From a bacterium (GTDB lineage Bacteria > Patescibacteriota > Minisyncoccia > Phycocordibacterales > UBA918): a stretch of DNA of 42,994 bases. Position numbers and translations under genes: made by a program. The stretch covers positions 1 to 42,994 of the forward strand of contig JAIYEC010000069.1 of assembly GCA_027487145.1 (NCBI GenBank), written 5' to 3'. Shown here in pieces: positions 3,622-38,862 of this stretch (position 1 is its first letter; each line of letters begins with the position of its first letter). Under the pieces are notes generated by a model that had not been told where the DNA came from, ran no database searches, and saw nothing but the letters and a program-made list of their open reading frames with translations.

Positions 3622-3658
3622 AAAATAAAACACCACATATCGTGTGGTGTTTTATTTT
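3622..3658. terminator. bidirectional hairpin terminator
   Basis: Perfect 16-bp stem aaaataaaacaccaca / tgtggtgttttatttt with loop tatcg, and A/T runs on both sides. It abuts the stop of the minus-strand gene at 3658. Confidence 0.8.
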
Positions 3659-4188
3659 TACGAGAGTTGACTTGATCGGAGTTCTTGAAGACGTTGTAGT
3701 AAAGCGATAAGCTCCGTGAGTTGTCTTATCTTTGCTTTCAGTTCCGCCTGGGTAGCCGGACTCTTGGCGATGCTTGGTTTTATATCCCAACACGATCGAG
3801 CCGGTTCCCATGGTGTTGTGCTTTGCTGTTCGTAGAGATGTTTAGCGTATCCAAGGTTACCTTCAAGGGTGGTGATGTCAAACCCAAGCGCTTTGGCAGG
3901 TTCTGCGTGGATGCTCTCAAAAAACTGAAAGATACCAACCATGCCACCACTGTCACCACCTCGCAGGACAGTTCCGGCATCGGTGAACTGCCTGAAGTTC
4001 GATTCACAGCGAGCAATTTCAATCATGACCGGAGTGTCTTTAAAGAATTCACGTACTCGTTTTTCAGAAGCCTCTCTTGATAGAGGCGTTGCGGTGGCTG
4101 TTTTAGTTTTGGTAGCCGCTTCTGCATTGGTGGTCATCCCAAAAACTAATAGACAAGAAAGTACCGTACACGTATATATGATTTTCAT
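3658..4188 (-). CDS. secreted transglycosylase-like (lysozyme-like) domain protein
   Basis: Signal peptide MKIIYTCTVLSCLLVFGMTTNAEA. IARCESNFRQF...GGMVGIFQF resembles the CES...G.(L/F)Q(F) signature of the transglycosylase-like/Rpf-type domain. Start set to the ATG at 4188, which has TATAAT 8 nt upstream; the track start at 4197 is TTG. Confidence 0.6.
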   Translation of the reverse strand: MKIIYTCTVLSCLLVFGMTTNAEAATKTKTATATPLSREASEKRVREFFKDTPVMIEIARCESNFRQFTDAGTVLRGGDSGGMVGIFQFFESIHAEPAKALGFDITTLEGNLGYAKHLYEQQSTTPWEPARSCWDIKPSIAKSPATQAELKAKIRQLTELIALLQRLQELRSSQLS

Positions 4189-4216
4189 AGGGTGCAATTA
4201 TACACCAAGAGTAGGT

Positions 4217-4275: not shown

Positions 4276-4845
4276 ATGTACAGATTGCTACAGTCTCTTG
4301 TAGCAATCTGTCTGATTGCTACTCCGCTTGTTCCAGCTTTAGAAGCTAAAGAGGAGACTTCTCTTACCATAATCGATCGATTGGTCGTGACTGGTTTTGA
4401 GCGAGGCAGGTCAGAACCGGTTGACACAATCGTTTTACATTCCGTATTTGCCCAAGGGAAGGCTGATCCGTATGCAGTTGATGAGGTAATAGCACTTTTT
4501 GCTCGCTATCAAGTGAGTACACACTATCTCATTGATCGTGAAGGAAACGTCTATCGTCTTGTTGGTGAGCGTGATACCAGCTATCATGCGGGCAAAAGTC
4601 GTATGCCAGAACCTGATGGTCGCGATGGTGTAAATTCGTTCTCGGTTGGTATTGAGTTAATCGGAGGACATGACGATGTCTTTACCGAGGCGCAGTACCT
4701 CTCGCTAGAAGTTCTTCTCCGTGACATTAAGACCCGCCATAATATAAAACACGTGGTTGGTCATGGTGAGATTACTCCAGAGCGCCGGAGTGATCCGTGG
4801 AATTTTGACTGGACCCGGATGTGGAGATGGATAGAAAACTGGTAG
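4276..4845 (+). CDS. N-acetylmuramoyl-L-alanine amidase (Amidase_2 / AmpD-PGRP type), secreted
   Basis: Signal peptide, then IVLHS...HYLIDREGNVYRLV...SYHAG...NSFSVGIEL...HGEITPERRSDP, which matches Amidase_2 zinc-amidase motifs. Confidence 0.85.
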   Translation: MYRLLQSLVAICLIATPLVPALEAKEETSLTIIDRLVVTGFERGRSEPVDTIVLHSVFAQGKADPYAVDEVIALFARYQVSTHYLIDREGNVYRLVGERDTSYHAGKSRMPEPDGRDGVNSFSVGIELIGGHDDVFTEAQYLSLEVLLRDIKTRHNIKHVVGHGEITPERRSDPWNFDWTRMWRWIENW

Positions 4846-4876
4846 CCTCGTCGCATGCGACGAGGCTATTACTTTT
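4843..4876 (+). terminator. rho-independent terminator of the amidase gene
   Basis: Palindrome tagcctcgtcgca/tgcgacgaggcta (4843-4868) followed by a T-rich tract; it overlaps the TAG stop. Confidence 0.7.
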
Positions 4877-4921: not shown

Positions 4922-6667
4922 ATGTACCATATGTCTCCCAAGAGCCTCTTTTTATTCAAAAAGAACGTCTACTTAAAAGTAGGAGCTTTTCTCTTGATCA
5001 TACCGACTATTCTCGTACTCACATTTACTCAAAACAAGCCTGTTGCTGATGCGCAAATTGCCTCACTCTATGCTTCTACCTGTCTTGGTGGTTGGAAAGA
5101 TGTCGATAAAGTAACTGGCGTTCCTGAGGTAGCGGGAGATGCTTCGGTCGAATACTCTGAGAAAAATTCCGCAACACTCTATAATAAACAAACACAAATT
5201 TATTGTGGTGGTTTTACCGGACAGATTCCTGACGGAGTAAACAGAACCAAAGTAGCATTACGGTTTTCGTGGGGAGTAGAAGGTGTGATAAGAGATACTG
5301 TCCCACAAAGAGATAATCAAGAAACTAATTCAGTAGGTAATACAACAATTATCGAATCAGATACAGCTTCAGGAACGAGTGAAACTAGTGGGGGAGTACA
5401 GTCAGATAATTCTGAAAGTGTAGAACCTGCTCAAGAAGAAGAGGTTCCGGTAGAGGCGCAGCAAGAACCTGCTGTAGAAAGTGAGAGTGTTTCTTGGTGG
5501 AGGCAATTAGTACCACAAGCATTTGCGCAAGAAGAAGTCATCGAAGATGTAGGTCCAGTTGACGAGGTGATGGTTGAGCCGACAACCCCTGAAGCTACTC
5601 AGCTAAAAGAAACTACTACAGCTCAGGCGACGTCTACCGACGAATCAAAAGACGAAGAAATATCATTGGAGACAGATGAGATTCTTGCCAGTTCTACAGC
5701 TAGTTCTTCTGCTACTTCAACTCAGCGATCGTACGTCTCACCAATTTTTGATGAGAATACCAGTAAGGACAACGCTTTATTTGAGGTATTGTTTACCTTA
5801 GATAATGAAAATTGGTATCCGTTGGGATACGTCTCTCGTATCAATAATGATATTCAGTTTGAGCTACCGCTTGAGTTATTTACCTCGGTAGAAGATTTTA
5901 ATAAACTTCAAATTTCACTCAAGACAGTGGAGCGCTTTGATGAAACGCCCAAAATCTATCTTGATAGTATGTGGATTGAAGTGTCGTATCTTGGTGTCGA
6001 CGAAGATCCGTTAGCGCCACCAGGAACCCGCGGCGGAGACGTCATCATGAGTTCTGTGAGCACACCAGAGACCACCCTCGTGACAGTCTTTCGAGGAGTA
6101 AAACTTGAAACTCTTTCAAATATCACTAGTTTACTCGCAAGTACGACGGCTACCGGTACCGCCAGCACAACACTAGTACAAGGAACGAGCACAGAAGCTA
6201 GTGGTGCTGCCATTGTTGCTCCGCTTGCACAGAGTTCAACATTAGCCACTTCATCAGCCACTTCAACAGCCAGTACTTCAATACCGATGGTGACGTTCGA
6301 ATCTGAGATTCCGCTTGAAATACGGAAAGAGCTCCGAGCGACGCCTGGCGTAGAGGTAGAGGTGTGGCTCTATGACAGATTAACAGATGCGTGGACGAGA
6401 GTCGCTGACAATAGTAGTACTGCTACGGTTCCTAAAGCCGTGTTATTGGATAATAAAGTCTTTTGGTTTGGTCCTGAAAATACCAGTTTGTGGCTGTTTG
6501 ACACAGTAGCAAATAGTTATAGTTCGCGGTCACTTTCAGTCACGGAACCAGTTGAGATTGAGTTTATTAATTCTGCCGGAGCAGTCGAATATGTACAGTA
6601 TAATGTTGAGTCAGAACAGCTTGAACGTAAAGGTAGTGTAAGTTCAAGTAGTGTATCGAGTGTGTAG
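4922..6667 (+). CDS. hypothetical N-terminally anchored surface protein with acidic and S/T-rich low-complexity linkers
   Basis: 581 aa. N-terminal TM/signal anchor VYLKVGAFLLIIPTILVLTF, an E/S/T-rich region, and S/T-rich tracts. First gene of a tightly spaced six-gene operon. Confidence 0.7.
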   Translation: MYHMSPKSLFLFKKNVYLKVGAFLLIIPTILVLTFTQNKPVADAQIASLYASTCLGGWKDVDKVTGVPEVAGDASVEYSEKNSATLYNKQTQIYCGGFTGQIPDGVNRTKVALRFSWGVEGVIRDTVPQRDNQETNSVGNTTIIESDTASGTSETSGGVQSDNSESVEPAQEEEVPVEAQQEPAVESESVSWWRQLVPQAFAQEEVIEDVGPVDEVMVEPTTPEATQLKETTTAQATSTDESKDEEISLETDEILASSTASSSATSTQRSYVSPIFDENTSKDNALFEVLFTLDNENWYPLGYVSRINNDIQFELPLELFTSVEDFNKLQISLKTVERFDETPKIYLDSMWIEVSYLGVDEDPLAPPGTRGGDVIMSSVSTPETTLVTVFRGVKLETLSNITSLLASTTATGTASTTLVQGTSTEASGAAIVAPLAQSSTLATSSATSTASTSIPMVTFESEIPLEIRKELRATPGVEVEVWLYDRLTDAWTRVADNSSTATVPKAVLLDNKVFWFGPENTSLWLFDTVANSYSSRSLSVTEPVEIEFINSAGAVEYVQYNVESEQLERKGSVSSSSVSSV

Positions 6668-6668
6668 T

Positions 6669-9600
6669 ATGAAATACGTTCTCGGTTTACAGAAGTGGCA
6701 TAACATACTCATTTTGATGATTGTGAGCGTATTCATCTTTAATCAAGGTGAATTATTTCAGTTACGAAACTTCAGTAAATCAATTGCGCCACTACCAAAA
6801 ACTGCCGAGGCCACGTATCAGTTTGCTCCAACCGGTGGGGTAATCGTCACTGGTACAAATCCACCTATATTGGGAGCAACCGCCCCAAATGCTGAAGGGG
6901 TGAATATGGGAGATTGGCGCGGAGCAGCAGCAGACGACAATCTCCACTTTGGTATTACCTCAACTACGGGTGGGTACAATGCCTATCTTGATATGGCTGG
7001 GTTTGAACTTAACAATGCCAACGCAATTATTATTCAAACCGAATTTGACTTAGACGTTACTGCGCCAAACACGCTTATTCAAATCTGTGACTGGGTCTCT
7101 AATGTCGGGGTCCATAATGCAGCTGATGCACAGTGTTCAAACGGCGGGTGGCGAAATTTAAATCTTAATGATGTTGTGCTGGCGCCAACAACCGCTACAA
7201 CATATTCTTGGCAAATTTATAATGGCTATTGGGATACCAGCGCAACAGCACCTATTGATACTCCTCTCACAAACTTCTTAAACGGCGGATCAGTTCGAAT
7301 TCGGTTTTTTTCGACCACAAACACAACCTCAATCGTTAATATCGACTTCCTTCGAGCGTTTGCGGTAGTGAATCCAGTTTACTATGCCTCAGGAGTGACT
7401 CAGCTTTCGGGAGGAACCCCAACGGGAAACTACACACTTGCTACAGTTGGCGGTGTGACTCAGACAGGGTCTGATGATGTACGTTTTGCCGTACCAGGTA
7501 CTGCCGGGTCTATCTCGGACTTCTACTTCTCATTTGATGACGTTCGCACGTACACTGGGGCAAATACTATTTTAGTGCGGGCGGAATACTCATGTAGTGC
7601 GGTTGGTATTAATCATCGACCAAAAATTTATAACTTCACCACGGCTTCATGGGAAGATCTCACAACTGCGTCAATTATATGTGCGGGGGTTGATGCCACC
7701 AACGCCTGGGCAAAAAATAATGTGACAATTGGGGATTACGTACAAAACGGTGAAATTAGAGTGGGGTGGTACGGTCTTGCTAATGGTACGCAAGCAATCC
7801 AGCTTGATTTTATATACGTCATGATTGGGACGACCAATACTGATGCTGGAGCTGGTGCTGCAGAAATTAGTTTCGGTTCGGTCTCAGCGGGAACTGTCAC
7901 AAACACCCGTACGCTTGATATGACTGGTACCGCTAGTACTTGGAATATTCTCTCGGCTGATGAGTCTAACACACAAGCATTTGCCAGTTATGCTAACGAT
8001 ACTGACAACGACACTGTGGTTGAGGAAGCGAGTGCTGCCAATATTGATTTTTCAGTTACCGTTCCTGATAATGTTGCACCAACCGGTGTATTTTTTGCCA
8101 GTCGACATATGGCTGGTACTGCTGGTAACGTCCAGGTTGGGATTTACGACTACGGTGGGCTTACTGGAACCCAAGGGGGATGGTCTGCCGTTGGGGCTGT
8201 TGGAGCGACAACCCTCACATACACAGATAACATTGTCGCTAATACGGTGGCTTCAGGAGGTGCTGCGGGCTGGAATACTAACCCTGAAGACCACGTTGAT
8301 ACCAGAAACAACCTCATGAACCTACGGCTCCGCACTTCCTCGGCTGGAGCAACTACTAACAACTCTATTGCTCAGTGGGACTTTGCCATGGTGAGCCTCC
8401 AGTGGGTTGAAGATGGTAACTATCCCGCCAAAACCTATCAATATGCGCCTACCGGTGGCGCAATCGTGACCGGTTCAAACCCAGCCATTTTGGGTGCAAC
8501 AAATCCGGCGACTGAAGGGGTTAATATGGGTGACTGGCGCGGTGCAATTGCACCGGACAACCTTCACTTCGGCATCACGTCAACCGTCAGTGGCTATAAT
8601 GCCTATCTTGATTTGGCCGGGGTAGCTCTTAATGGAGCGAATCAGTTTATTATCCAAACTACCTTTGACGTTGACCCTACGACCCCAAACACACTCGTCC
8701 AAATCTGTGACTGGGTCTCCAGCACAGGAGTGAATAACGCAGCCGACGCACAGTGTACCACCGGCGGTTGGCGGAATCTGAATCTCAATGACGCGGCGGC
8801 TGTCCCGGCAACCCCAACTGCATATTCATGGCACATTTATAATGGCTACTGGAACACCAGCGCAACTGCGCCGATAAATACACCACTGACTAATTTTGTG
8901 AATAATGGATTAGTTCGGATTAGATACTTTTCTACGACTAATACCACTTCAGTAGTGAATATCGACCACTTGCGCCTCTTTGCGGTTGTGAATCCGGTGT
9001 ACGGTCCATCAAGTGCAACGCAGATTAGCGGGGGAGCAATAGTGGGTGATTATTCTCAAGCCAATTTTGGTGGGGCTGGTCAAACAGGGTCTGATGATGC
9101 CCGTTTTAGTGTTCCAGGTACAGCGGGTGCGATATCAGATTTCTACTTCTCATTTGATGAGGTAAAGACGTATACCGGGGCAAATACCATTTTAGTGCGG
9201 GCAGAATACTCGTGCAGCGCCGTCGGTATCAACCACACTCCTAAAATATTTAATTTCACATCAGGCTTATGGGAAAACCTAGCTGCAGCTTCAATCGCTT
9301 GCTCAGCCACCGATGTTACCAATGCGTGGGCTAAGAACAACATCACTATGTCTGACTATGTCTCAAATGGTGAGATTCGAGTAGGGTGGTTTGGTTCGGC
9401 CAATAACGTTCTTCAGCTACGGATTGATACGATTTATATCATGATTGGTACCACCAATACTGACGGCACAGGAAATATTACCTTTGGTTCAAACTCGGCA
9501 GGAACAGTTGCTAATACCCGTACGCTTGATATGACCGGTACAGCGAGCACGTGGAATATTCTCTCGGCTGATGAGTCCAACACACAGGCTTTCGCATTTT

Positions 9601-10526
9601 GGGGAAATGATAACGACAATGATGCGACAGTAGAAGAAGCCAGTTCAGCCAATATGGATTTTTCAGTTACTGTCCCACAAAATACGTTTCCGACCGGAGT
9701 ATTTTTTGCTTCGCGACATATGTCAGGTATTGGAGGGACAGTTACACCAGCGGTGAGAGATTATGGAGGGCTTATCGGTACGGTTGGAGGCTGGTCTGCT
9801 GTAGGTGTTGGTGGAACAACCGCGCTGACATACTCTGACAATATTACTGCTAATACCATCAACTCAGGTGGCTCAGCTGGCTGGAATACCAACCCAGAGG
9901 ATCATTTTGATACTGTAAATAATGAGATGAATATGAAATTACGCACCAGCATTTCATCAACACCAACAACTAATAACGCTATTGCACAATGGGATTTTGC
10001 GATGGTGAGCTTCCAGTGGATTGAGGTTCCCAAAGTTCAAAAGCTAACCTTTTCAATTTCAGATAATACCATCGGGTTTGGACCAGTTGGTTCAGCTGCG
10101 GCGAGGTACGCCACAGGAGATACACTAGGTAGTGCAACTGATGCCGCAAACGCGCATACTATTAGTGCGTCCACAAACGCTGATAGTGGGTACACCATCA
10201 CCCTTAATGGGGCGACTTTAACCTGTGCAGCGTGTGCTGGGGCTACCATTTCGGAGATTGGCGGAACCGCCGTCGCTTCAAGCGTGGGGACTGAACAATT
10301 TGGTCTTAGAGGGATAGTCGTGAGTGGGAACGGAACTATCAGTTCTCCGTATAACGGTGCAAACTGGGCGCTTGATACAGCCGCTTTCCCGGACACGTTT
10401 GCTATTGGTGCAGGGGATGCTGTAACGACTGTCTTTGGGATACATTATCTAGCAAATACGAGCGCCAGCACTGAATCAGGTCAGTACAGTGCAAATCTGA
10501 CATACATCATTACGGCATCGTATTAG
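6669..10526 (+). CDS. giant secreted surface protein: 2 x 539-aa tandem repeat plus WxL/SCPU-like C-terminal domain
   Basis: The ATG at 6669 is 2 nt after the upstream stop; the track start 6651 is GTG inside the upstream gene. N-terminal hydrophobic segment ILILMIVSVFIF. Repeats at 6810-8426 and 8427-~10031. The C-terminal domain (10044-10523) is homologous to the C-terminus of the next gene. Confidence 0.85.
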   Translation: MKYVLGLQKWHNILILMIVSVFIFNQGELFQLRNFSKSIAPLPKTAEATYQFAPTGGVIVTGTNPPILGATAPNAEGVNMGDWRGAAADDNLHFGITSTTGGYNAYLDMAGFELNNANAIIIQTEFDLDVTAPNTLIQICDWVSNVGVHNAADAQCSNGGWRNLNLNDVVLAPTTATTYSWQIYNGYWDTSATAPIDTPLTNFLNGGSVRIRFFSTTNTTSIVNIDFLRAFAVVNPVYYASGVTQLSGGTPTGNYTLATVGGVTQTGSDDVRFAVPGTAGSISDFYFSFDDVRTYTGANTILVRAEYSCSAVGINHRPKIYNFTTASWEDLTTASIICAGVDATNAWAKNNVTIGDYVQNGEIRVGWYGLANGTQAIQLDFIYVMIGTTNTDAGAGAAEISFGSVSAGTVTNTRTLDMTGTASTWNILSADESNTQAFASYANDTDNDTVVEEASAANIDFSVTVPDNVAPTGVFFASRHMAGTAGNVQVGIYDYGGLTGTQGGWSAVGAVGATTLTYTDNIVANTVASGGAAGWNTNPEDHVDTRNNLMNLRLRTSSAGATTNNSIAQWDFAMVSLQWVEDGNYPAKTYQYAPTGGAIVTGSNPAILGATNPATEGVNMGDWRGAIAPDNLHFGITSTVSGYNAYLDLAGVALNGANQFIIQTTFDVDPTTPNTLVQICDWVSSTGVNNAADAQCTTGGWRNLNLNDAAAVPATPTAYSWHIYNGYWNTSATAPINTPLTNFVNNGLVRIRYFSTTNTTSVVNIDHLRLFAVVNPVYGPSSATQISGGAIVGDYSQANFGGAGQTGSDDARFSVPGTAGAISDFYFSFDEVKTYTGANTILVRAEYSCSAVGINHTPKIFNFTSGLWENLAAASIACSATDVTNAWAKNNITMSDYVSNGEIRVGWFGSANNVLQLRIDTIYIMIGTTNTDGTGNITFGSNSAGTVANTRTLDMTGTASTWNILSADESNTQAFAFWGNDNDNDATVEEASSANMDFSVTVPQNTFPTGVFFASRHMSGIGGTVTPAVRDYGGLIGTVGGWSAVGVGGTTALTYSDNITANTINSGGSAGWNTNPEDHFDTVNNEMNMKLRTSISSTPTTNNAIAQWDFAMVSFQWIEVPKVQKLTFSISDNTIGFGPVGSAAARYATGDTLGSATDAANAHTISASTNADSGYTITLNGATLTCAACAGATISEIGGTAVASSVGTEQFGLRGIVVSGNGTISSPYNGANWALDTAAFPDTFAIGAGDAVTTVFGIHYLANTSASTESGQYSANLTYIITASY
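6810..10031 (+). repeat. in-frame tandem duplication, period 1617 nt (539 aa)
   Basis: ATYQFAPTGGVIVTGTNPPILGAT... (from 6810) realigns with KTYQYAPTGGAIVTGSNPAILGAT... (from 8427) over the entire unit. Long identical peptides are shared, e.g. YTGANTILVRAEYSCSAVGINH and TRTLDMTGTASTWNILSADESNTQAFA. Confidence 0.9.
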
Positions 10527-10644
10527 AGAGTAATGTAATAGTTTTCCCCATGTTCTCCACAGAGTTGTACATAAAAATAAGTGTTAACGAGATAGAATAT
10601 ACGTATCTCCGTGAGAGATGCTATTAGCCATATTTATTTGTACA

Positions 10645-11748
10645 ATGTTAACCAAAACCTTATATAAAAAAAGCACAGCGCTACTTGTTGCTTTCGCTTT
10701 AACGCTTGGATCGCTCTTATCATTCAATGCTGCCAATGCTGCACCACTTATAAACGTCTCAGATACTCTCAGTACGGTAAACACGAGTACTGCAGCTGAC
10801 CATACAATCGTATTCCGTACTCCAACGGGAGCGGCTGATACATCTGATACCATCACTATTACATTCCCAGCTGGGTTTACTATGAACTCAATTGCGTTTG
10901 ATGACGTCGACCTTGAATGGTCAGCCGGTGGTCAGTCTAACTGTACCGCTCCGTCATATTCAAACAGTGCTACTATCGCTGCATCACCAGCTTCAGGCAC
11001 CTGGGGAGCTGCGTTAGCAGGACAAGTACTTACACTTACTGCCCCGTCTGCTGCGTTTGCAACTACTATCGCAGCTAACGCTTGTGTACGTATTGAACTT
11101 GGATTTAATGCCACTACTGGTTCAACCGGAAATACTCGTATTACTAACCCAGCAACTGCTAACAGTTATGCAATTGATGTTGCTGGTCTCTTTAGTGACA
11201 CAGGAAGCGCGCTCGTAAATATCATTCCTGATGACTCAGTTGATATTGCTGCAACTGTAGCTCAATCTCTCACATTTTCTATCTCAGACACTGCTATTGG
11301 TTTTGGTAACCTCAACTCAGCGGCAGCCCGCTTTGCGACTGGAGACGCTACAGGATCGGGTACTGAAGTTGGTGCGCACGACTTAGTAGTAGGTACTAAC
11401 GCATCAAACGGATATACATTGACAGCCACTGGAACAACACTTACTTGTAGTGGTTGTGGAGGGGCAACAGTCACAGGAATCGGTGCGACTGCTGCAGCGT
11501 CAAGTGTTGGTACTGAGCAGTTTGGTATGCGCTTTACCGCTACTGGTGGAACCGGTACGGTTTCCGCACCATATAACGGAGCTAACTTTGCTTTTGACTC
11601 AGCAGCATTTCCAGATCAAATTGCATCAGCGGCTGGTTCAAGTGCTAACACCACCTACTCAGCTCGATATCTTGCAAACATTGCAGCTAACACTGAGGCA
11701 GGTGCCTATTCGGCCACTCTCACGTACGTAGCCACAGCCAATTTCTAA
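10645..11748 (+). CDS. secreted surface-layer/fibre subunit candidate with WxL/SCPU-like C-terminal domain
   Basis: Textbook signal peptide MLTKTLYKKSTALLVAFALTLGSLLSFNAANA/AP starting at the ATG at 10645 (the track start 10618 is the alternative). The C-terminal ~160 aa (11269-11745) parallels the C-terminus of the giant protein: LTFSISD..IGFG...GTEQFG...PYNGAN.A.D.AAFPD...G.YSA.LTY..TA.(Y/F)-COOH. Confidence 0.75.
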   Translation: MLTKTLYKKSTALLVAFALTLGSLLSFNAANAAPLINVSDTLSTVNTSTAADHTIVFRTPTGAADTSDTITITFPAGFTMNSIAFDDVDLEWSAGGQSNCTAPSYSNSATIAASPASGTWGAALAGQVLTLTAPSAAFATTIAANACVRIELGFNATTGSTGNTRITNPATANSYAIDVAGLFSDTGSALVNIIPDDSVDIAATVAQSLTFSISDTAIGFGNLNSAAARFATGDATGSGTEVGAHDLVVGTNASNGYTLTATGTTLTCSGCGGATVTGIGATAAASSVGTEQFGMRFTATGGTGTVSAPYNGANFAFDSAAFPDQIASAAGSSANTTYSARYLANIAANTEAGAYSATLTYVATANF

Positions 11749-11777
11749 TTTTAGAATCCGTGCTATTATAGTCTCAT

Positions 11778-12731
11778 ATGAGCCGACACATTCTGGTAAA
11801 AAGTCTCCTAATCGTACTATTCTTTTTACCAATCAGTGCGTCGGCTCTTACTATTTCACCGACAAAAATTGAAGTAGCTGGTGATCCCGGGCAAGAGTTA
11901 ATTGGTGAAATCGAAGTGTTCAACGAAGAGTCAGAAGACAAGACCTTTTACAGTTCGTTTGAAAACTTCGAACCACGAGGGGAGACTGGTTCACCATACT
12001 TTGTTGGTGGCGGGTCTGGTCTTGCTTCATGGATGAGAACTCAAGAATCGTTTACCTTAAAACCTGGAGAAAAGTTCACTATTCCATACTCAATCAAGAT
12101 CCCAGAATCCGCCACCGCAGGGGGCTACTTTGCAGCGATATTCTTTGGTACGCAACCACCAGCAACCGGTGAGGGTAGTGAGGTTGCTATCGGTGGAAAA
12201 GTTGGCACACTCGTGTTATTAAGAGTCAATGGAGATATTGCTGAAAGCGGTGGCGTGCTTGATTTCATGACCGCATCTAGCAGTCGCTTTTACACCGGGT
12301 TACCAGTGAACTTTTCATATCGTTTTAATAACACTGGGGCTGACCGAGTGGTTCCTAAGGGTGAAGTTACCATCAAGAATATGCTTGGTATGAACTCAGG
12401 AGCTTTACTTATTAACAAAAATGAAGGGAGTGTACTTCCAAACAGTGTTCGAAAATTTGAGCTCGTGTGGGCAGAGGATAAACCAGTAGCCGAAGACGCG
12501 TCATTTTTTGCTATTGCCGGGTACCAATTAACGAATTTTAGATTTGGATTATATCGGGCAGTGCTCGAGGCATCATGGGGAGAAACAACACAACGAGCAA
12601 CAGCTTCAACATGGTTTGTAGTAGTGCCGTGGCAACTACTGAGTATCTTACTCGTGCTTGGATTGGTTATGCGATTTGGCTTAGGTTTTTACAATCGGGC
12701 GATTATTGCTCGAGCAGCAAAATCTAAATAA
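11778..12731 (+). CDS. DUF916/CscA-like cell-surface protein with C-terminal membrane anchor
   Basis: Signal peptide. LTISPTKIEVAGDPGQ...IEVFNE, ASW...FTLKPGEK..IPYSIKIPESATAGGYFAAIFF, and a second beta-rich domain. C-terminal TM WQLLSILLVLGLVMRFGLGF plus a basic tail. This layout matches DUF916/DUF3324 proteins of Firmicute WxL clusters. Confidence 0.55.
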   Translation: MSRHILVKSLLIVLFFLPISASALTISPTKIEVAGDPGQELIGEIEVFNEESEDKTFYSSFENFEPRGETGSPYFVGGGSGLASWMRTQESFTLKPGEKFTIPYSIKIPESATAGGYFAAIFFGTQPPATGEGSEVAIGGKVGTLVLLRVNGDIAESGGVLDFMTASSSRFYTGLPVNFSYRFNNTGADRVVPKGEVTIKNMLGMNSGALLINKNEGSVLPNSVRKFELVWAEDKPVAEDASFFAIAGYQLTNFRFGLYRAVLEASWGETTQRATASTWFVVVPWQLLSILLVLGLVMRFGLGFYNRAIIARAAKSK

Positions 12732-13744
12732 TGCCCTTATTTAAAATCACACTACTTTTTGGATGTCTGGTACTAGGGAGCAATATAGCTCTCGCTACGT
12801 CTTATACTGTAGACATCGTGGCCCGTGTACCGGGCTGTGGAGACGCCATACTTCAAGTAGGGGAAGAATGTGATGGGACTAATCTTGGTGGTGCCAGCTG
12901 TGAGACGATAGGATTTGATGCTGGAGCGCTTAGTTGTTCGAGTGCTTGTACATTTTTAACCAATAGTTGCGTATTAGCTCCGCCTAGTTCAGGTGGTGGA
13001 ACAAGAGTGGTGAAAGAATCAGAAAATAGTCCTCTCCCAGAGACTAATGTTGTTGTGTCTGGACTAGCTCCACCGGGTATGAACGTCTCACTTCTTAAAG
13101 ACGGAAAAAGAGTTGCTACTGTACCGGCAAAAGATGATGGTACGTTTCAAATTACCATCTCAGGTCTTTCTGGCGGCGTCTATCGAATGCAGGTGGTTGG
13201 GACTTTGGTTGGTCTTGGTGTGTCACGGAGTGATGTGTTTCCGGTACAGGTTTTAAAAGATGCTACTACAAAAATATCTGAAGTAGTATTACCCCCCAGT
13301 CTTGTGGTGGAAAAGCAAGACACTAACTACAGTATTCTTGGGGTGACATACCCAGAATCAACCGTATCTTTGTACGTAAAAAGTTCTTTCATACGTAGCG
13401 TGGTTGCAGATCAGCTGGGGGTGTATCGTTTTCTAATTCCAATAACGACTGGTAATTCTGGAGCCGATGTCTACGTTGTAGCCATGATACCGTCAGTATC
13501 GACAACCTATAAAAGTATTACCGCAATACTACCAGCATTAAACGAAGCCACTAAACCACAGTCAGATGGTGGTTGTATTCTTCTCGGAGATATAAATGCT
13601 GACTGTCGCGTAGACGCTGTCGATTTCTTTGTTAGTCGTTGGCAATTTGTGAGAGACCTTTTTAGTACAAGATTTGATTTTAATGATGATGGATTTGTTG
13701 ATTTGGTAGATTTCAGTATCATTGCATTTAATTGGACTGGATAA
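12731..13744 (+). CDS. secreted protein: Cys-rich repeat, two Ig-like modules, C-terminal dockerin-like domain
   Basis: The start overlaps the upstream stop (TAATG). CGDAILQVGEECDGTNLGG.SC resembles the CGDG..GEECDDGN Cys-rich repeat. The C-terminus has two EF-hand-type dockerin loops, DINADCRVDAVD and DFNDDGFVDLVD, with D/N at loop positions 1, 3, 5, 9 and 12. Confidence 0.65.
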   Translation: MPLFKITLLFGCLVLGSNIALATSYTVDIVARVPGCGDAILQVGEECDGTNLGGASCETIGFDAGALSCSSACTFLTNSCVLAPPSSGGGTRVVKESENSPLPETNVVVSGLAPPGMNVSLLKDGKRVATVPAKDDGTFQITISGLSGGVYRMQVVGTLVGLGVSRSDVFPVQVLKDATTKISEVVLPPSLVVEKQDTNYSILGVTYPESTVSLYVKSSFIRSVVADQLGVYRFLIPITTGNSGADVYVVAMIPSVSTTYKSITAILPALNEATKPQSDGGCILLGDINADCRVDAVDFFVSRWQFVRDLFSTRFDFNDDGFVDLVDFSIIAFNWTG

Positions 13745-13745
13745 T

Positions 13746-14645
13746 ATGAAATACGTACCCATTTGTCTTTTCATACTCAGTCTCATGGTGCCAAGTTTCT
13801 TACTAGCAGCAGAGATTCGCCTTGTGCCAACTGAGATTCCAGTCAGCGTACAGCAGACTGTTGGTGTGGCTGTGAAGTTAGACCTGGCTTCTGTAGCAGC
13901 TAACGCATTTGAATTAAAAGTAGAGTTTGATGACTCAAAGCTCATATACCAATATGCGACAGACGCTACTGCTGTAACCTCATTCTGGATTCAGTATCCG
14001 TACCTCTGTGAACCTGGCGTACTCTGTTTCTCGGGGTTGATTCCAGGTGGCTTTTCTGGTCTTGATCAAGAGTTAGTCATTCTCTACTTTACCCCAAAAG
14101 AATCGGGAGCAACTGCTCTTTTAACGAAAGATATGCGAGTGCTAGCGCATGATGGTAAAGGGACAGAAATTCCAGTTACCACTACTCCGCAAGAAATAGC
14201 TATACAAGAATCTGCTTCTATCCCAGAAGTGCAACAGCCTATTTCTGATAGTGAACCACCTGAACCATTTGTGCCATACATAGCTACTGACGAAGCCGTG
14301 GAAAACGGATCACAGGTACTCATCTTTGATACCAAAGATAAACAAAGCGGGGTAGCGTCATATTTTGTGAAAGAGTACTCATTGCCAGTGTTGCGATGGT
14401 TTACCCCATGGACGGCAGTAGAGAGTCCGTATGTTCTTGCCGACCAATCACGCAAAAGTACTATTGCAGTGAAAGCGGTTGACGTGTACGGAAATGAACG
14501 AATCGCCTATATCTATGCTGAAGAAGGATACATCTACCAAAATATTTTAGTCTCAGTATCTGTCACAGTCGTACTGCTAGTGCTTGGTTGGTACTTCAAA
14601 AGAAGGCGTCGACGGTATTCAGTTACTCAACTTGGAAGCGCGTAA
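13746..14645 (+). CDS. membrane-anchored protein with N-terminal cohesin-like domain
   Basis: The ATG at 13746 is 1 nt after the upstream stop. Signal peptide MKYVPICLFILSLMVPSFLLAAE. IRLVPTEIPVSVQQTVGVAVKLD...AFELKVEFDDSKL...LVILYFTPKESG fits the cohesin beta-sandwich pattern. C-terminal TM ILVSVSVTVVLLVLGWYF followed by KRRRRRY. Confidence 0.5.
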   Translation: MKYVPICLFILSLMVPSFLLAAEIRLVPTEIPVSVQQTVGVAVKLDLASVAANAFELKVEFDDSKLIYQYATDATAVTSFWIQYPYLCEPGVLCFSGLIPGGFSGLDQELVILYFTPKESGATALLTKDMRVLAHDGKGTEIPVTTTPQEIAIQESASIPEVQQPISDSEPPEPFVPYIATDEAVENGSQVLIFDTKDKQSGVASYFVKEYSLPVLRWFTPWTAVESPYVLADQSRKSTIAVKAVDVYGNERIAYIYAEEGYIYQNILVSVSVTVVLLVLGWYFKRRRRRYSVTQLGSA

Positions 14646-18369: not shown

Positions 18370-20262
18370 CTAAACGATTCGCTCAGGATTTATTTCTACC
18401 TTCACGTAGGGTGGTAGTTGTCGCACCTGTGACATTGCTTCAGCAAATCGCCCCTTCTCTTCAAGTGGTATGCGCATTAATACATGGCGAAGCGTATGAC
18501 TTTTAGTGGAGTGAGGATTGGTATAAAACTCCGCCAGAGGTGTCGTGAGGATTTGCTTAATCTCGCTTTCTGATTCTTTTACCACTACTTCAGGACCTGA
18601 CCACGAAAGGAGAATAAAGGTACTAAATGGCGGATAGAGAAGTTGCTTACGAAGCAGGATTTCATCATCAAAAAACCGTTCAATCGCTCCTTTGCTCGCA
18701 TACTCGACTAATTGGTCCGGGTCATTTCGGGTTTGAATCAGCACTTCGCGAACGCTACATTCACGCAGCTTCATAATCAGTCTAAAGAGTGATTCGTCTG
18801 CTCGCCAGGTTGGGGTACTTCTCGCTGCATCAAGCGAGATAATGGCACTGACAGCAACGCCTTGGTGGAGGTGTGGTAGTGCTACTTGTGTTCCAATTAA
18901 AATTCCGCCTTTTTTACTAAAGAACTCTCGAACCACTTTTTCAACTTTTTGGGGAGTAGGGGCGGTACTGTGATCAAGGAGGGTTACATCAGTGTGTGGG
19001 AAGAGGTTTTTCCATTCGTCATACACCTGCTGTATTCCAATTCCTCGTTCTTTTAGTCGCCAAGAACCACAGTTATCGCAGGTGTCAGCTGCGCGGACAC
19101 GTTTCCCTGATGTACTTGAAACAAACCAACGCTCTTCAGTATCATTCTTTACCGTCCGGATGAGCGAATACGGTGTATGAGAATCTGGACACCGAAAGAT
19201 ATACCCACAATCAATGCAGGCTACCACCGGGGCTAGGCCGCGTCTCGCGCTGTACAAAAAGACATGACCTTTTGCTTCAAGTGCGGTGGTGACACTCTTG
19301 ATAAGGGCTGGTGAAAACAGTTGGAAGGGAACTTCGCTGCTTGGTTTATCATTTTGCTTAACAACGTGAACAGGCGCAGAAAATACGAGCCGTTTTACCT
19401 CCTCCCCGTATGTAAAATAGGTATCGGCTCGTCGTTTAGCTTCTTCTTCAGTACGAACTACCGTATCACCTAAAATAATGCTTGCTCCTTGAGCTTTGGC
19501 GTACGTGATAAGAGCATCACGGTGGTCTAGATACGGTCGAGTTCGGTCAATGTAGTGTGCGCTCGCTGATTGTTCGACAATGACACTCGTGATGTCTCCG
19601 CGACCGCAGTACGCATACGGAGGGGTGGTGATAATCAGTTTAGAGAATTTTGTATCCTCTAAAGCTTCTGTCATCTGCTGATAGGTTTTTTTACTTGGGG
19701 TAGCGGTGAGGGTGATGATTCTGTCTAGAATACCGTGTCCTAACTCTCGCTTTGCGTACATGACATCTGTGCTTGTTGGTACTACAAATAAGACCGAACC
19801 GCGTTTAGCGAAGGTGCTTCTAATGTGACTTTGATAACTGCGATACCGCTCATCAAGACGAGCCATCAAAATTTGTGGTGTCGTCTCTTCTTGGTGAATA
19901 ACAGCAGTACTGTCTTTATAGGTTCGAAGACCATTTCTAATATCTGAAGGAAGGAGGGTGAAGAGAATTGAGCCGAGTGATGCGGGATATCGCTCACTGA
20001 GTTTTAGGGCGGTATCTCGAATAGCTTGAGGGACAACACCGGTCGCTTCTTGATTTGGAAGTTTTCGTAATGAGAAGGTGGCTGCCTTAAGCGCGGTTTT
20101 GGCGGTGCCGACCGTGGTCACGTTGGTAACTATGGCGTGTTTACTTTTTCCGCGAATCGGAACTTGGAGGAATGTCCCAATCTCATACGAAATACTTGAG
20201 TAGTAGGAGAGTGACTCAAGGTGGGTGCCGCGGATGAGAGGAATCACTTCAATGACGTACAT
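18370..20262 (-). CDS. priA: PriA-like primosomal protein N' with degenerate ATPase motifs
   Basis: The N-terminal MYVIEVIPL...FLQVPIRGK 3'-DNA-binding-like domain, the Cys-rich region CIDCG...CDNCGS and the overall length fit PriA. The positions equivalent to Walker A and DEEH read ARLDERYRSY and VIVEQSASAHY. Confidence 0.7.
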   Translation of the reverse strand: MYVIEVIPLIRGTHLESLSYYSSISYEIGTFLQVPIRGKSKHAIVTNVTTVGTAKTALKAATFSLRKLPNQEATGVVPQAIRDTALKLSERYPASLGSILFTLLPSDIRNGLRTYKDSTAVIHQEETTPQILMARLDERYRSYQSHIRSTFAKRGSVLFVVPTSTDVMYAKRELGHGILDRIITLTATPSKKTYQQMTEALEDTKFSKLIITTPPYAYCGRGDITSVIVEQSASAHYIDRTRPYLDHRDALITYAKAQGASIILGDTVVRTEEEAKRRADTYFTYGEEVKRLVFSAPVHVVKQNDKPSSEVPFQLFSPALIKSVTTALEAKGHVFLYSARRGLAPVVACIDCGYIFRCPDSHTPYSLIRTVKNDTEERWFVSSTSGKRVRAADTCDNCGSWRLKERGIGIQQVYDEWKNLFPHTDVTLLDHSTAPTPQKVEKVVREFFSKKGGILIGTQVALPHLHQGVAVSAIISLDAARSTPTWRADESLFRLIMKLRECSVREVLIQTRNDPDQLVEYASKGAIERFFDDEILLRKQLLYPPFSTFILLSWSGPEVVVKESESEIKQILTTPLAEFYTNPHSTKSHTLRHVLMRIPLEEKGRFAEAMSQVRQLPPYVKVEINPERIV

Positions 20263-20392: not shown

Positions 20393-20433
20393 AGCGGCAC
20401 CAGCCTCAGGCCTTGCCTGGGGCTGGTGCCGCT
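20393..20433 (-). terminator. 18-bp GC-rich hairpin overlapping the murA stop codon
   Basis: agcggcaccagcctcagg-ccttg-cctggggctggtgccgct with one G-U pair and no clear T-run. It shares the GGCACCAGC/GCTGGTGCC stem with the hairpin at 41703-41735. Confidence 0.5.
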
Positions 20434-21931
20434 AAAACTCATCAAGATAGCTAATATTGGCTCCCAGGGTCGTGAGGCGTTCGACGAGCTTCTCATAGCC
20501 ACGATTGATGCTGTAGATATTTCGGAGGATCGAGCGACCTTCGGCACCGAGCATAGCGATAAGAAGAATGGTAGCTGGTCTGAGGGCTGGTGGGCAGACA
20601 AGTTCGTTAGCGCGTAACTTGCTTGGTCCGGTGATGTAGATTCGGTGTGGGTCTGCCAAAACGGTGTCGCCGCCGAGCTTATCAAGCTCAGTAAAGTAAA
20701 TAGCTCGCTTTTCGTACATCCAGTCATGAATGAGGGTTTGACCATGTACCTGGGTTGCGATAACAGCAAAGAACGGCAAGTTATCAGCGTTGATGCCAGG
20801 GTACGGGCGAGAGTGAATTTTTTCAGATACGGCAACGAGTTTTGATGGCTTTGTGGTGATATCAACTAGCTTCACTTGTCCATTCTTGCCAAGGTACGGT
20901 TTGCTCTGCGTATACTTAAAGCCCATTTTCTTAAGGGTAAGGAGCTCAAGTTCAAGAAACTCAATCGGGCAGCGGGTAATGGTAAGGCTCGAATTTGTCA
21001 CAATCGCTGTGGCCAAGAAGAACATTGCGTCAGTCGGGTCTTCTGCCAGATGATACTCAATATCTTTTTTGATTTCTTTTACACCGGTAATGGTGAGGGT
21101 GGTGGTTCCAACACCTTCAATAGTGACACCAAGATGTTGCAGGAATACACACATTTCTTGCACCATGTAGTTAGCCGAGCAGTACTTAATAGTGGTTGTT
21201 CCACTCGATAGGGCAGCTGCCATGAGGGCATTTTCTGTTACCGTATCTCCTGACTCATAGAGAATAATCTCACTCGGTCGCTTGTGCTTCACTGCCACTT
21301 TGTAGGCATCATCAGTTACTTTGATATCAACTCCAAATTCTTCCAGGGCGTAGAAATGAGGGCGGACAGTTCGACTGCCGAGTTTACAACCACCTGATTG
21401 TGGAAGGGCAAACGTACTCATCCGGTGAATCAGTGGTCCGATAAACATCACAATGCTCCGAGTTCGTTTGGCTGCTTCAATATCAATCTTAGTGAGATCA
21501 ATCTTCGCTGGAGGAGTAATTTTCATCATGTTTTTACTCCATTCGATTTTTACGCCGATACTCTCAAGTACCTCAACTAATCGATGTACTTCCTCAATGC
21601 GAGGCATGCCGTAGAGGGTAGTCGTGCCTTTATTTAAGAGAGATGCACATAACAAACCGACGGCTCCATTTTTTGAGGTATTGGTCTGGATGGTACCGGC
21701 TAGTTTTTTACCACCAGTAATTTGCACGTTGACCGTTCCGGGAGAAAGAGTGATGAGGTTTTTACCGAGCGCTTTACCGATACGCTTGAGCATGTCAGCA
21801 CTCACATTTTGTTTACCACTTTCGATGCGAGCAATCGCGCTTTGGGTTGTCTTGAGCTTTTTAGCTAAGTCAGTTTGAGTAAGACCGAGAGTTTCTCGTA
21901 CGTCCGCAATGCGGGTTCCAATATCTTGCAT
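20432..21931 (-). CDS. murA: UDP-N-acetylglucosamine 1-carboxyvinyltransferase with N-terminal XRE-type HTH domain
   Basis: Residues ~1-60 (IADVRETLGLTQTDLAKKLKTTQSAIARIESGKQN) form a classic HTH_XRE. The rest aligns to MurA (VQITGGKKLAGTIQTNTSKNGAVGLLCASLL...; active-site loop SGGCKLGSRTVRPH). Confidence 0.85.
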   Translation of the reverse strand: MQDIGTRIADVRETLGLTQTDLAKKLKTTQSAIARIESGKQNVSADMLKRIGKALGKNLITLSPGTVNVQITGGKKLAGTIQTNTSKNGAVGLLCASLLNKGTTTLYGMPRIEEVHRLVEVLESIGVKIEWSKNMMKITPPAKIDLTKIDIEAAKRTRSIVMFIGPLIHRMSTFALPQSGGCKLGSRTVRPHFYALEEFGVDIKVTDDAYKVAVKHKRPSEIILYESGDTVTENALMAAALSSGTTTIKYCSANYMVQEMCVFLQHLGVTIEGVGTTTLTITGVKEIKKDIEYHLAEDPTDAMFFLATAIVTNSSLTITRCPIEFLELELLTLKKMGFKYTQSKPYLGKNGQVKLVDITTKPSKLVAVSEKIHSRPYPGINADNLPFFAVIATQVHGQTLIHDWMYEKRAIYFTELDKLGGDTVLADPHRIYITGPSKLRANELVCPPALRPATILLIAMLGAEGRSILRNIYSINRGYEKLVERLTTLGANISYLDEF

Positions 21932-22011
21932 ATGGGATGAGTATAGCAGATATGCTATGTCGTATGGATTTACCCCTGGGTATAGTATTTTGTGATACTA
22001 TACTGCCACGT

Positions 22012-23025
22012 ATGTTTGCGTCTTTAACGCCCAAAATTGGTATCGATCTTGGTACCACCAGTATCCTGGTGTTTGTTCCCGGCCAGGGGATTGTTCTTAA
22101 TGAACCGTCAGTGGTAGCTATTTCTGAGAATAACGAAGTATTGGCGGTTGGGAGTGAAGCCAAGGCTATGATTGGCCGAACGCCTGATAGTATCCGAGCC
22201 TACCGGCCTATGCGCGATGGTGTTATCGCTGACTATAAAGTGACCGAAGCCATGTTGCGCTACTTCCTGAAGAAATCAATGAGTAAGTACAGTCTCTTTC
22301 GTCCGGATGTAATGGTTTCAGTACCAGCGGGCGTTACTTCAACTGAGCGTCGAGCAGTGGTGGAAGCTGCCATGCGAGCTGGAGCAAAAAATGCCTTTGT
22401 CGTAAAAGAACCAATTCTGGCAGCGATTGGCGCAGGAGTACCTATTTATGAACCACAAGGACACATGATTGTAGATATGGGAGGCGGTACTATCGACGTT
22501 GCTGTAATTTCTCTCGGTGGCATTGTGGCGGCCAACTCCGTAAAGTGTGCCGGTAACCGAATCGACACGGCCATTATCGATTACGTCAAAAAGACTCGTA
22601 ATCTTGCGATTGGAGAAAAAACGGCTGAAGATATTAAAATTGGCGTTGGTTCAGCCTTACCACTTGAAGAAGAACTTACGATGGAAATCAAGGGTCGTGA
22701 TATGTTGTCAGGCTTGCCTCGCACGACCGAGATTAAGAGTAATGAAGTTGTTCGTGCTACACAGAAAGAATTGAAAGAGATGATTAAAGCCATTAGAGAT
22801 GTGTTTCAAGAGACACCACCTGAGCTCGCCGCAGATATTATTGATGGAGGAATTATTCTTACGGGCGGTACCTCACAGCTTCGTAATTTCCCAGAACTCA
22901 TTAGGCGTCGAACTGGCGTGAAGGCCCGGGTCGCAGACCAGGCCCTGTTTTGTGTGGCGAAAGGGACGGGGACAGCGCTTGAACATCTTGATGTCTACAA
23001 GCGCGCCGTACTCGCGAAGCGGTAA
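22012..23025 (+). CDS. mreB: MreB/Mbl-family actin-like protein (paralogue 1)
   Basis: IGIDLGTTSILVFV..GIVLNEPSVVA...GRTP...RPMRDGVIADY... The start is moved to the ATG at 22012 (MFASLTPK...), which has TATACT 7 nt upstream. Confidence 0.85.
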   Translation: MFASLTPKIGIDLGTTSILVFVPGQGIVLNEPSVVAISENNEVLAVGSEAKAMIGRTPDSIRAYRPMRDGVIADYKVTEAMLRYFLKKSMSKYSLFRPDVMVSVPAGVTSTERRAVVEAAMRAGAKNAFVVKEPILAAIGAGVPIYEPQGHMIVDMGGGTIDVAVISLGGIVAANSVKCAGNRIDTAIIDYVKKTRNLAIGEKTAEDIKIGVGSALPLEEELTMEIKGRDMLSGLPRTTEIKSNEVVRATQKELKEMIKAIRDVFQETPPELAADIIDGGIILTGGTSQLRNFPELIRRRTGVKARVADQALFCVAKGTGTALEHLDVYKRAVLAKR

Positions 23026-26051: not shown

Positions 26052-26068
26052 AATACAGGTAATACTGT

Positions 26069-27262: not shown

Positions 27263-27304
27263 TAGTCATATTACTTTCAAAAAGAGTGTTATCATATTCG
27301 TATT

Positions 27305-38797: not shown

Positions 38798-38833
38798 AAA
38801 AGACCGACGCTCACGTGTCGGCCTTTTCTTTTT
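38798..38833 (+). terminator. rho-independent terminator of greA
   Basis: aagaccgac (38800-38808) / gtcggcctt (38817-38825) followed by TTTTCTTTTT. Confidence 0.7.
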
Positions 38834-38862
38834 GTCATTCCTACGCTAGGATAAACGTTACT

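Follow-up and report, generated by a model that had tools for sequence, protein, structure and literature searches.

A probable Pam-type donor-strand pilus operon with dockerin and cohesin-like proteins in a patescibacterial contig

For bacteria of the Candidate Phyla Radiation (CPR, or Patescibacteria), a life in attachment to host cells is assumed, and the means of this attachment are largely unknown beyond a few Saccharibacteria. Cryo-electron microscopy (cryo-EM) of the filaments of one of them, Candidatus Mycosynbacter amalyticus (Saccharimonadia), identified the pilins PamA and PamB, whose C-terminal domain accepts the linker of the neighbouring subunit, the donated linker and the groove being their most conserved parts (bioRxiv 10.64898/2026.03.03.709456). 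The pam operon also encodes the FimC/PapD-like chaperones PamC and PamD, which carry a C-terminal membrane helix and for which a role in groove-capping and subunit hand-over was proposed, a tip pilin reduced to the C-terminal domain (PamT), PamE and an RbmA-like membrane anchor (PamR); Pam pili were found mainly in Saccharimonadia and Microgenomatia, and WxL proteins are not mentioned in that preprint (bioRxiv 10.64898/2026.03.03.709456). Lactobacillales and Listeria have WxL clusters in which WxL proteins of two sizes, small and large, share a C-terminal domain, and a hairpin strand of the membrane-anchored, two-Ig WxL-interacting protein (WxLIP; DUF916-DUF3324 plus transmembrane helix) is predicted to complete the WxL sandwich (PMC10599100, PMC9772566). 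Here, we analyzed a six-gene cluster at positions 4922-14645 of a stretch of 42,994 nucleotides (hereafter the window; positions 1 to 42,994 of contig JAIYEC010000069.1, assembly GCA_027487145.1, from a bacterium of the Patescibacteriota placed in Minisyncoccia, Phycocordibacterales, UBA918). We propose that this cluster is probably an operon for a Pam-type donor-strand pilus, in a Parcubacteria variant.

As listed below in nucleotide (nt) coordinates, the interval is filled by six co-directional open reading frames (ORFs), g1 to g6, with products given in amino acids (aa).

4922-6667, + strand: g1, 581 aa, exported or anchored, with Ser/Thr/Glu-rich low-complexity stretches; accessory member
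6669-10526, + strand: g2, 1285 aa from ATG, giant Pam-type pilin and proposed tip adhesin
10645-11748, + strand: g3, 367 aa (376 aa from an alternative start at 10618), candidate Pam-type shaft pilin
11778-12731, + strand: g4, 317 aa, membrane-anchored, PapD-like/WxLIP-like, proposed pilin chaperone (PamC/D analogue)
12731-13744, + strand: g5, 337 aa, secreted dockerin protein and proposed pilus-base adaptor
13746-14645, + strand: g6, 299 aa from ATG, membrane-anchored, cohesin-like, proposed anchor for g5

An N-terminal hydrophobic export segment was present in all six products, and a transmembrane segment with a basic tail was found in addition at the C-termini of g4 and g6. The ORFs thus confirm the preliminary description of this DNA as regards six co-directional genes with N-terminal export segments. 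Sec signals on all components, the lack of an usher, a sortase or an ATPase, an operonic arrangement and a restriction to CPR are traits in common with the Pam system.

One finding behind our proposal concerns the domain of about 160 aa that the 1285-aa and 367-aa proteins had been said to have in common at their C-termini. This domain was readily recovered: residues 1118-1285 of g2 and 201-367 of g3 were 57% identical over 168 aa (E 2e-48), and the window contains these two copies only, both in larger proteins. With the NCBIfam model NF058581, "Pam pilus system pilin subunit" (CPR_Pam_pilin_C), for which the curated cut-off is 55 bits, g3 reached 72.6 bits in an alignment to positions 6-148 of the 148 in the model and g2 reached 51.2 bits, slightly under the cut-off. 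The same model was matched by every one of the 60 g3 relatives tested (best 1e-26). Judged by sequence, the shared g2/g3 domain is a member of the Pam pilin C-terminal domain family. The PamT model NF058579 (cut-off 240 bits) reached at best 37.7 bits, on the C-terminal domain of g3 only. By contrast, the families to which the domain had first been compared were not recovered, since WxL (PF13731), SCPU and DUF4402 gave no Pfam match at E<=1 in g2, g3 or 60 relatives. The WxL-like tripeptide WAL, on which that comparison partly leaned, turned out to be peculiar to g2: W-x-L occurred within the C-terminal domain of none of the 60 pilin relatives, and the column of the g2 WAL holds F in 54 of the 60. 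The terminal aromatic pointed out at the same time is a true feature of the domain (F or Y in 117 of 119). An aromatic C-terminus with an alternating hydrophobic last strand is likewise found in the subunits of chaperone-usher pili (Pap, Fim, CFA/I, Csu, Caf1), in which an incomplete immunoglobulin (Ig)-like subunit is completed by a donated strand.

We then considered the architecture of the two putative pilins, of which the parts are the following.

6813-8411, + strand: g2 repeat 1 (aa 49-581), tandem unit of about 535 aa
8433-10025, + strand: g2 repeat 2 (aa 589-1119), tandem unit of about 535 aa
10020-10523, + strand: g2 pilin domain (aa 1118-1285), C-terminal, in a protein that starts with a signal sequence
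about aa 35-194 of g3, + strand: N-terminal beta-sandwich, after the signal peptide
11230-11268, + strand: g3 conserved linker DDSVDIAATVAQS (aa 196-208), candidate donor strand
11269-11745, + strand: g3 C-terminal domain (aa 209-367), NF058581 match

In the AlphaFold2 (AF2) model of g3, with a predicted local distance difference test score (pLDDT) of 89.7, about ten strands occupy aa 36-194 and are followed by an all-beta C-terminal domain at aa 209-365. The linker between them (aa 195-208) is conserved across the family yet has a low pLDDT. This predicted architecture, two all-beta domains joined by a conserved linker, matches the one seen for PamA and PamB by cryo-EM, and both g2 and g3 contain paired cysteines, as reported for PamA/B. 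Shared with Pam pilins are thus a C-terminal domain above the NCBI cut-off and a conserved inter-domain linker between two domains, whereas a giant pilin with a duplicated 535-aa module distinguishes the window from the pam operon. The two tandem repeats of g2, overlooked in the preliminary description, are 73% identical to each other. Searches of the PDB by sequence and profile with g3, g4 and the g2 repeat returned nothing meaningful, the PamA/B entries 25PZ and 25QA being outside the searched set. Whole-chain Foldseek with g3 returned only generic two-Ig adhesins (MSCRAMMs, integrins), and its first 50 matches contained neither a WxL chain nor a pilin of the chaperone-usher or Pam type.

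The distribution of the linker motif among the proteins of the cluster was then analyzed. All g3-like pilins display DD(Q/S)V-x-[VI]-[ST]-A-T-V immediately ahead of LTFSISD, the first strand of the domain, whereas in the upstream large pilins the similarity starts only at (Q/E)(S/T)-LTFSISD and the motif is absent. Scored with a matrix of this linker, g3 of the window obtained 15.3 bits, g2 1.2 bits and g5 7.9 bits. In the g5 family, the same motif, here V-x-[IV]-x-A-x-V(PG), stands right after the signal peptide, and next comes a Cys-rich module or, for several relatives, poly-Gly. Since poly-Gly directly follows the motif in those relatives, the motif cannot belong to a compact domain. When the pilin-motif matrix was applied to 1777 ORFs, the N-termini of g5 proteins ranked directly behind the pilins. 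Over residues 16-60, the g5 relatives had a median of 9.0 bits against -0.3 for shuffles, and 49% of them reached at least 9 bits compared to 0.8% of the shuffles; the g4, g6, g1 and large-pilin families all scored at null. In addition, a VDI variant is common to the pilin of the window (SVDIAATV), to g5 (TVDIVARV) and to their two closest relatives. As the motif is present in the shaft pilin and in g5 and absent from the large pilins, these results suggest an order with g2 at the tip, g3 in the shaft, g5 as base adaptor and g6 as anchor, g4 being the chaperone. This specific order of tip, shaft, adaptor and anchor is tentative, and we would place it somewhat below an even chance. The donor would differ from that of chaperone-usher pili in being an internal inter-domain linker instead of an N-terminal extension.

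The next protein of the cluster is the 317-aa product of g4, which includes the following segment.

12615-12725, + strand: g4 transmembrane helix (aa ~280-316), then a basic tail

The AF2 model of g4 (pLDDT 87.2) comprises the signal peptide, two beta-sandwich domains and a C-terminal helix at 285-316, with a conserved disordered loop (aa 131-140) that precedes a hydrophobic strand (aa 142-150). The two beta-rich domains, C-terminal transmembrane helix and basic tail first read from the sequence were therefore borne out by the model and the sequence. As regards Foldseek against the PDB, the top matches of g4 were WxLIP of Enterococcus faecium (9i1y and, bound to a long WxL protein, 9i25; E about 4e-11, TM-score 0.37-0.45), followed by RbmA (4kkp, E 8e-11, TM-score 0.25/0.32) and by the chaperone-usher chaperones CfaA, CsuC, Caf1M and DraB (E 6e-9 to 5e-7). 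The highest TM-scores, 0.46-0.56 on the target, belonged to these chaperones, and ASH/MSP-type domains were also returned. In its predicted fold, g4 appears as a membrane-anchored, two-domain FimC/PapD-like protein with a C-terminal transmembrane helix, as described for PamC and PamD, a likeness that is drawn from the description of those two proteins. The PapD-like two-domain fold is also what links g4 to chaperone-usher pili, together with the pairing of a variable tip adhesin with a conserved shaft subunit. Unlike those pili, however, the system of the window has no outer membrane, no usher and no Pfam PapD or fimbrial matches (PapD and usher-like families gave none in the operon), and g4 is anchored in the membrane.

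The preliminary description had read g4 as a DUF916-DUF3324 protein, and this was upheld in structure and not in family membership. WxLIP is indeed its best structural match in the PDB, but g4 obtained 12.2 bits on PF06030 (WxLIP_PGBD/DUF916) against a cut-off of 27.3, and PF11797 (DUF3324) matched neither g4 nor its 60 relatives; sub-threshold matches to WxLIP_PGBD recurred in 21 of these 60 relatives (best 9e-5). DUF916/DUF3324 would thus be the best available structural analogy for g4, short of demonstrated family membership. The analogy leads to a different explanation of the cluster, as a non-filamentous complex of the WxL/Csc kind in which the membrane protein g4 would hold g3 and g2 by its own strand in the shared domain, without any polymer. 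The logic of the two clusters is the same, that is, a short and a long secreted protein (g3 and g2) sharing a C-terminal domain of about 160-180 aa, beside a protein with a signal peptide, two Ig-like domains and a C-terminal transmembrane segment (g4) that would complete the domain by a strand. This architectural analogy extends over ~75 loci, and completion of a domain by a WxLIP strand follows the same principle as the capping of a pilin groove by a chaperone. A monoderm-type envelope and a non-covalent attachment are further points in common, and the matches of g4, both the structural one with the long-WxL complex and the recurrent sub-threshold ones, favour this explanation. Nevertheless, the shared domain falls in the Pam pilin family, of which members are filamentous by cryo-EM, whereas no polymers are known from WxL systems, whose presumed ligand is peptidoglycan. 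Moreover, the linker of g3 is strongly conserved and apparently unstructured, and a monomeric wall protein would not need one. The domain of the window has no detectable sequence relation to Pfam WxL and lacks the two conserved W-x-L motifs of WxL domains, g4 stays under the Pfam WxLIP cut-offs, the phyla are different and the window contains no LPxTG partner. We consider a WxL/Csc-like complex improbable; compared to the initial filing of the cluster under Csc/WxL, a Pam-type donor-strand pilus fits better (NF058581).

Another role for g4 was considered. In this alternative, g4 would be a PamR-type terminator or anchor whose N-terminus, LTISP, inserts into the last pilin, and g5 and g6 would be an unrelated, travelling cohesin-dockerin display pair. 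RbmA 4kkp was among the top matches of g4 (E 8e-11), PamR was described as RbmA-like with a transmembrane helix at its C-terminus, and a single g4-type gene is present here while M. amalyticus has two chaperones plus PamR. Furthermore, the mature N-terminus of g4 (A|LTISPTK, in which L24, T25 and P28 are invariant) resembles the LTFSISD strand of the pilins. On the other hand, LTIS already forms one of the strands of domain 1 in the AF2 model, and the TM-scores to RbmA (0.25/0.32) are lower than those to chaperones (0.38-0.40/0.54-0.56) or WxLIP (0.37/0.43). The pilin-linker motif sits in g5 and not in g4, and a donor-strand system devoid of a chaperone would be unprecedented. We therefore favour a chaperone-like g4 in a Pam-type pilus operon and regard its role as a PamR-type anchor as unlikely.

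The last two genes had been recorded earlier as exported proteins only, their dockerin and cohesin nature having been missed. Their features are as follows.

12809-12829, + strand: g5 linker-like strand VDIVARV (aa 27-33), directly after the signal peptide
aa 36-80 of g5, + strand: six-cysteine module, then Ig-like Big_6 domains
13583-13723, + strand: g5 type I dockerin (aa 285-331), PF00404 at family level
first ~150 aa of g6, + strand: cohesin-like domain after the signal peptide, followed by a second beta domain
14541-14597, + strand: g6 transmembrane segment (aa 266-284), then an RRRRR tail

Dockerin_1 was found in all ten proteins scanned (g5 and nine relatives), in five of them at or above the cut-off and with up to 36.4 bits, and the duplicated calcium-binding loops DINADCRVDAVD and DFNDDGFVDLVD are visible in g5 of the window. 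The Ig-like Big_6 domains are also present in g5 relatives. For g6, 9 of 27 relatives matched Pfam Cohesin (PF00963), at best with 1.3e-6, and the profile of the family matched the cellulosomal cohesins 5aoz and 5m2o (E 3e-4 and 8e-4) over the first ~55 residues only. Taken together at the level of their families, g5 and g6 apparently form a dockerin/cohesin pair. We also tried g6 as a second chaperone and rejected this, as g4 and g6 were unrelated beyond the signal peptide in profile-profile comparison.

The pair recalls the scaffoldins that anchor cellulosomes in Clostridia and Ruminococcus: the dockerin of g5 is of type I and contains two loops of the DxNxDGxxxxxD type, and the g6 family has an N-terminal cohesin-like domain on a cell-attached protein. 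One could accordingly imagine a cellulosome-like or S-layer-like display of enzymes or adhesins, with a cohesin-dockerin core and "pilins" that are cell-wall proteins. The conservation of the dockerin and cohesin-like domains in g5 and g6, the presence of Ig-like Big_6 and Big_13 domains and the lack of any component with a known catalytic function would be compatible with it. However, the operon has no glycoside hydrolase or other enzyme domains and no carbohydrate-binding modules, there is a single dockerin and a single cohesin-like domain, and the pilin and g4 are the best conserved and most widespread parts. The anchor is a transmembrane segment instead of SLH domains or a sortase, and the proposed cargo, a pilus base, is undescribed for cohesin-dockerin pairs in the literature searched. 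A display system of this kind is, in our opinion, very improbable.

Considering a Pam-type pilus, the assembly could be as follows. Pilins exported by the Sec pathway would join by donor-strand exchange with no outer-membrane usher. The shaft would be made of g3, whose incomplete Ig-like C-terminal domain would take a strand from its neighbour, and the inter-domain linker DDSVDIAATV would be the donated strand, giving a head-to-tail polymer. With an acceptor domain but no linker motif, and with its two 535-aa repeats, g2 would be the distal, host-binding tip and a variable adhesin. At the membrane, g4 would cap the groove of the pilins after their export, pass subunits to the growing base and catalyse the exchange. 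The N-terminal VxVxA.V strand of g5 would plug the last pilin while its dockerin docks on the cohesin of g6, and g6 would tether the filament to the membrane, the two proteins forming a two-piece counterpart of PamR. There is no PamR-type single protein in the cluster, and the N-terminal strand and dockerin of g5, combined with the cohesin-like domain and transmembrane segment of g6, are proposed as its split equivalent; RbmA is matched by g4 as well. A dockerin protein and a cohesin-like membrane protein where PamR would act are one of the differences from the pam operon.

Several observations weigh against this proposal. Regarding the strand, the donated stretch could be DDSVDIAATV or LTFSISD; the latter is also found in g2 and resembles the mature LTISP of g4, and if LTFSISD is the donated strand, g2 need not be the tip. 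The motif score of g5 in the window, 7.9 bits, is modest when taken alone. Its dockerin obtained 16.7 bits, below the Pfam cut-off of 22.9, with support at the family level, and g6 of the window gave no Cohesin match, so that its assignment comes from the family. As for g4, it matched none of the NCBIfam Pam models, and by E-value its matches to RbmA and WxLIP are no weaker than those to the chaperones, so that g4 could be an anchor or terminator instead of a chaperone. Finally, parts of the pam system are lacking: the window has one chaperone-like gene instead of two, no PamE and no PamT-like gene limited to the C-terminal domain, and its neighbourhood contains neither the ATP synthase genes reported beside pam operons nor CorB or major facilitator superfamily genes.

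To further evaluate the cluster, we surveyed its conservation among CPR genomes, as the preliminary description had suggested, and the gene order was strongly conserved. A genome scan yielded 76 related loci, and the order large pilin, ~355-aa pilin, g4, g5, g6 recurs in nearly all of about 75 loci (76 scanned plus a long contig, L001; other loci are numbered likewise). The first position is occupied by a variable protein of 280-2095 aa that ends in the pilin domain. In relatives, g6 is often directly followed by a second, longer g6-like gene, for a protein of ~570 aa (~490-590 aa, for example in L003:12899-14617, L016, L031 and L033) with faint Big_13 matches; it is absent here, where a convergent CLC channel gene is found instead. 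The related loci are mostly from Parcubacteria/Paceibacterota by their labels, which is a difference from Pam pili. The g3 and g4 families each comprise hundreds of close relatives, which, where named, are Parcubacteria, Nomurabacteria or Paceibacterota; the labels of relatives include Parcubacteria, Paceibacterota, Nomura-, Kaiser-, Taylor-, Staskawicz- and Harrisonbacteria, Patescibacteria group, Saccharibacteria, Gracilibacteria and others. From these labels, the family is probably restricted to CPR/Patescibacteria, and the few metagenome-assembled genomes labelled otherwise are probably mis-binned. At E<=1e-3, a scan with a profile hidden Markov model of g4 retrieved 8887 representative clusters; at E<=1e-30 their number was 1123, and overall the pilin and g4 are the most conserved and most widespread components.

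In contrast to these two proteins, the large pilin has its N-terminal portion substituted as a whole from one relative to another. In L001, the closest long contig, the flanking genes are shared as well and g4 is 62% identical, while its large pilin has an N-terminal portion unrelated to that of g2. The repeat module of g2 was found in only seven loci, where it is usually doubled. When L015:3012-6872 was compared to 6669-10526 of the window, the double-repeat module was 69% identical, whereas g4 of L015 was 51% identical and the N-terminal domain of g3 38%. That the module is at 69% while g4 is only at 51% suggests the exchange of an adhesin cassette between lineages. The large pilin at L007:2524-8808 has 2095 aa, with eight DUF7483 stretches and SBBP beta-propeller repeats before the Pam C-terminal domain, which shows the variety of N-terminal modules. 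Overall, the survey and the domain analysis support the earlier idea of an operon for a surface fibre or adhesion system, with a 367-aa protein as probable major subunit and a giant variant sharing its docking domain.

Concerning the limits of the cluster, the tight coupling claimed initially was true for three of the five junctions: g1 and g2 are separated by 1 nt, g4 and g5 overlap by TAATG, and g5 and g6 are separated by 1 nt. The claimed 2-nt gap is in fact 1 nt, and the spacings are wider between g2 and g3 (91-118 nt) and between g3 and g4 (29 nt). An alternative TTG start of g6 at 13722 is less likely than the ATG at 13746. One further element was noted at the upstream side.

4843-4868, no strand assigned: palindrome with an 11-pair stem (7 GC pairs) and a T-rich tail, between the upstream amidase gene and g1

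This palindrome is likely a terminator and the upstream boundary of the operon; scans for promoters and terminators gave chance level only. On the downstream edge, the CLC channel gene converges on g6. No Pfam or NCBIfam match was found for g1, and its homologue search returned only 30 relatives, all unannotated; it was found 5' of the large pilin gene in 15 related loci. In the Pfam scan of all six proteins, nothing was above cut-off, Big_6 in g5 being near threshold. As stated at first, neither LPXTG nor sortase was found, with no LPxTG motif in any of the six products and no sortase among the ORFs scanned in the window; sortase pili were ruled out on this basis. Type IV pili were likewise ruled out, as the operon encodes neither class III signal peptides nor an ATPase.

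Two exported candidates for cell-wall hydrolases lie immediately upstream of the operon, at 3658-4197 (-) and 4276-4845 (+): an Amidase_2 protein of 189 aa (Pfam 2e-25), which has a signal peptide, and a 179-aa secreted protein with no Pfam match, whose CES...GIFQF pattern recalls lytic transglycosylases by eye. They could serve to attack the host wall or to remodel the wall for the pilus. In L001, a Bestrophin-like gene takes the place of the amidase gene immediately upstream of the operon. Further downstream, the region 23280-28804 (+) encodes a 923-aa ATPase with HerA/DUF87, TraG-D_C and TrwB-like signatures (VirB4/coupling-protein-like), then unannotated proteins of 397 and 499 aa; it may belong to the type IV secretion system of monoderm type that has been reported for Patescibacteria (PMC12102498). 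A 499-aa fusion at 20432-21931 (-) combines an N-terminal XRE-type helix-turn-helix with an EPSP-synthase/MurA-type enolpyruvyl transferase; such an architecture is unusual among enzymes of the cell wall or the aromatic pathway, and the fusion is also found in L001. The 630-aa ORF at 18370-20262 (-) has no Pfam match and is of equal length and position in L001 (16365-18257). Two MreB paralogues lie within the 43 kb at 21937-23025 and 34069-35142 (+), the second upstream of a gene for a transpeptidase of the penicillin-binding protein 2 type, and a class I (archaeal-type) lysyl-tRNA synthetase is encoded at 38815-40446 (+) (tRNA-synt_1f, 5.5e-87).

Taken further, these comparisons would describe a Parcubacteria/Paceibacteria Pam pilus tethered by the dockerin adaptor g5 on the cohesin g6, and would make Pam, WxL/WxLIP and chaperone-usher systems branches of one ancient family of strand complementation, in which the membrane-anchored WxLIP/PamC type is the monoderm form of PapD. 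We advance this combined view as a speculation that we judge rather unlikely as a whole. No paper in the literature searched connects WxL to donor strands, or cohesin-dockerin pairs to CPR pili, and no gene given as highly expressed in archaea-parasitising Paceibacteria (PMC10936435 and supplements) could be linked to the g4-like "peptidoglycan-binding domain" family. A cohesin-dockerin tether for a pilus is an idea absent from the Pam paper and the literature searched, as is the structural bridge between the Pam chaperone-like proteins and WxLIP, a bridge that would make WxL clusters kin to donor-strand pili. The recognition of Pam pili dates only from 2026 and comes from a single cultured species, and NCBI already has models for them. 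Judging by the locus described here and its ~75 relatives in synteny, Parcubacteria/Paceibacteria, the largest class of the CPR, very commonly possess a related system. As the shaft pilin and the chaperone-like protein are conserved while the N-terminus of the large pilin is swapped, the large pilin would be a candidate determinant of host range in these bacteria.

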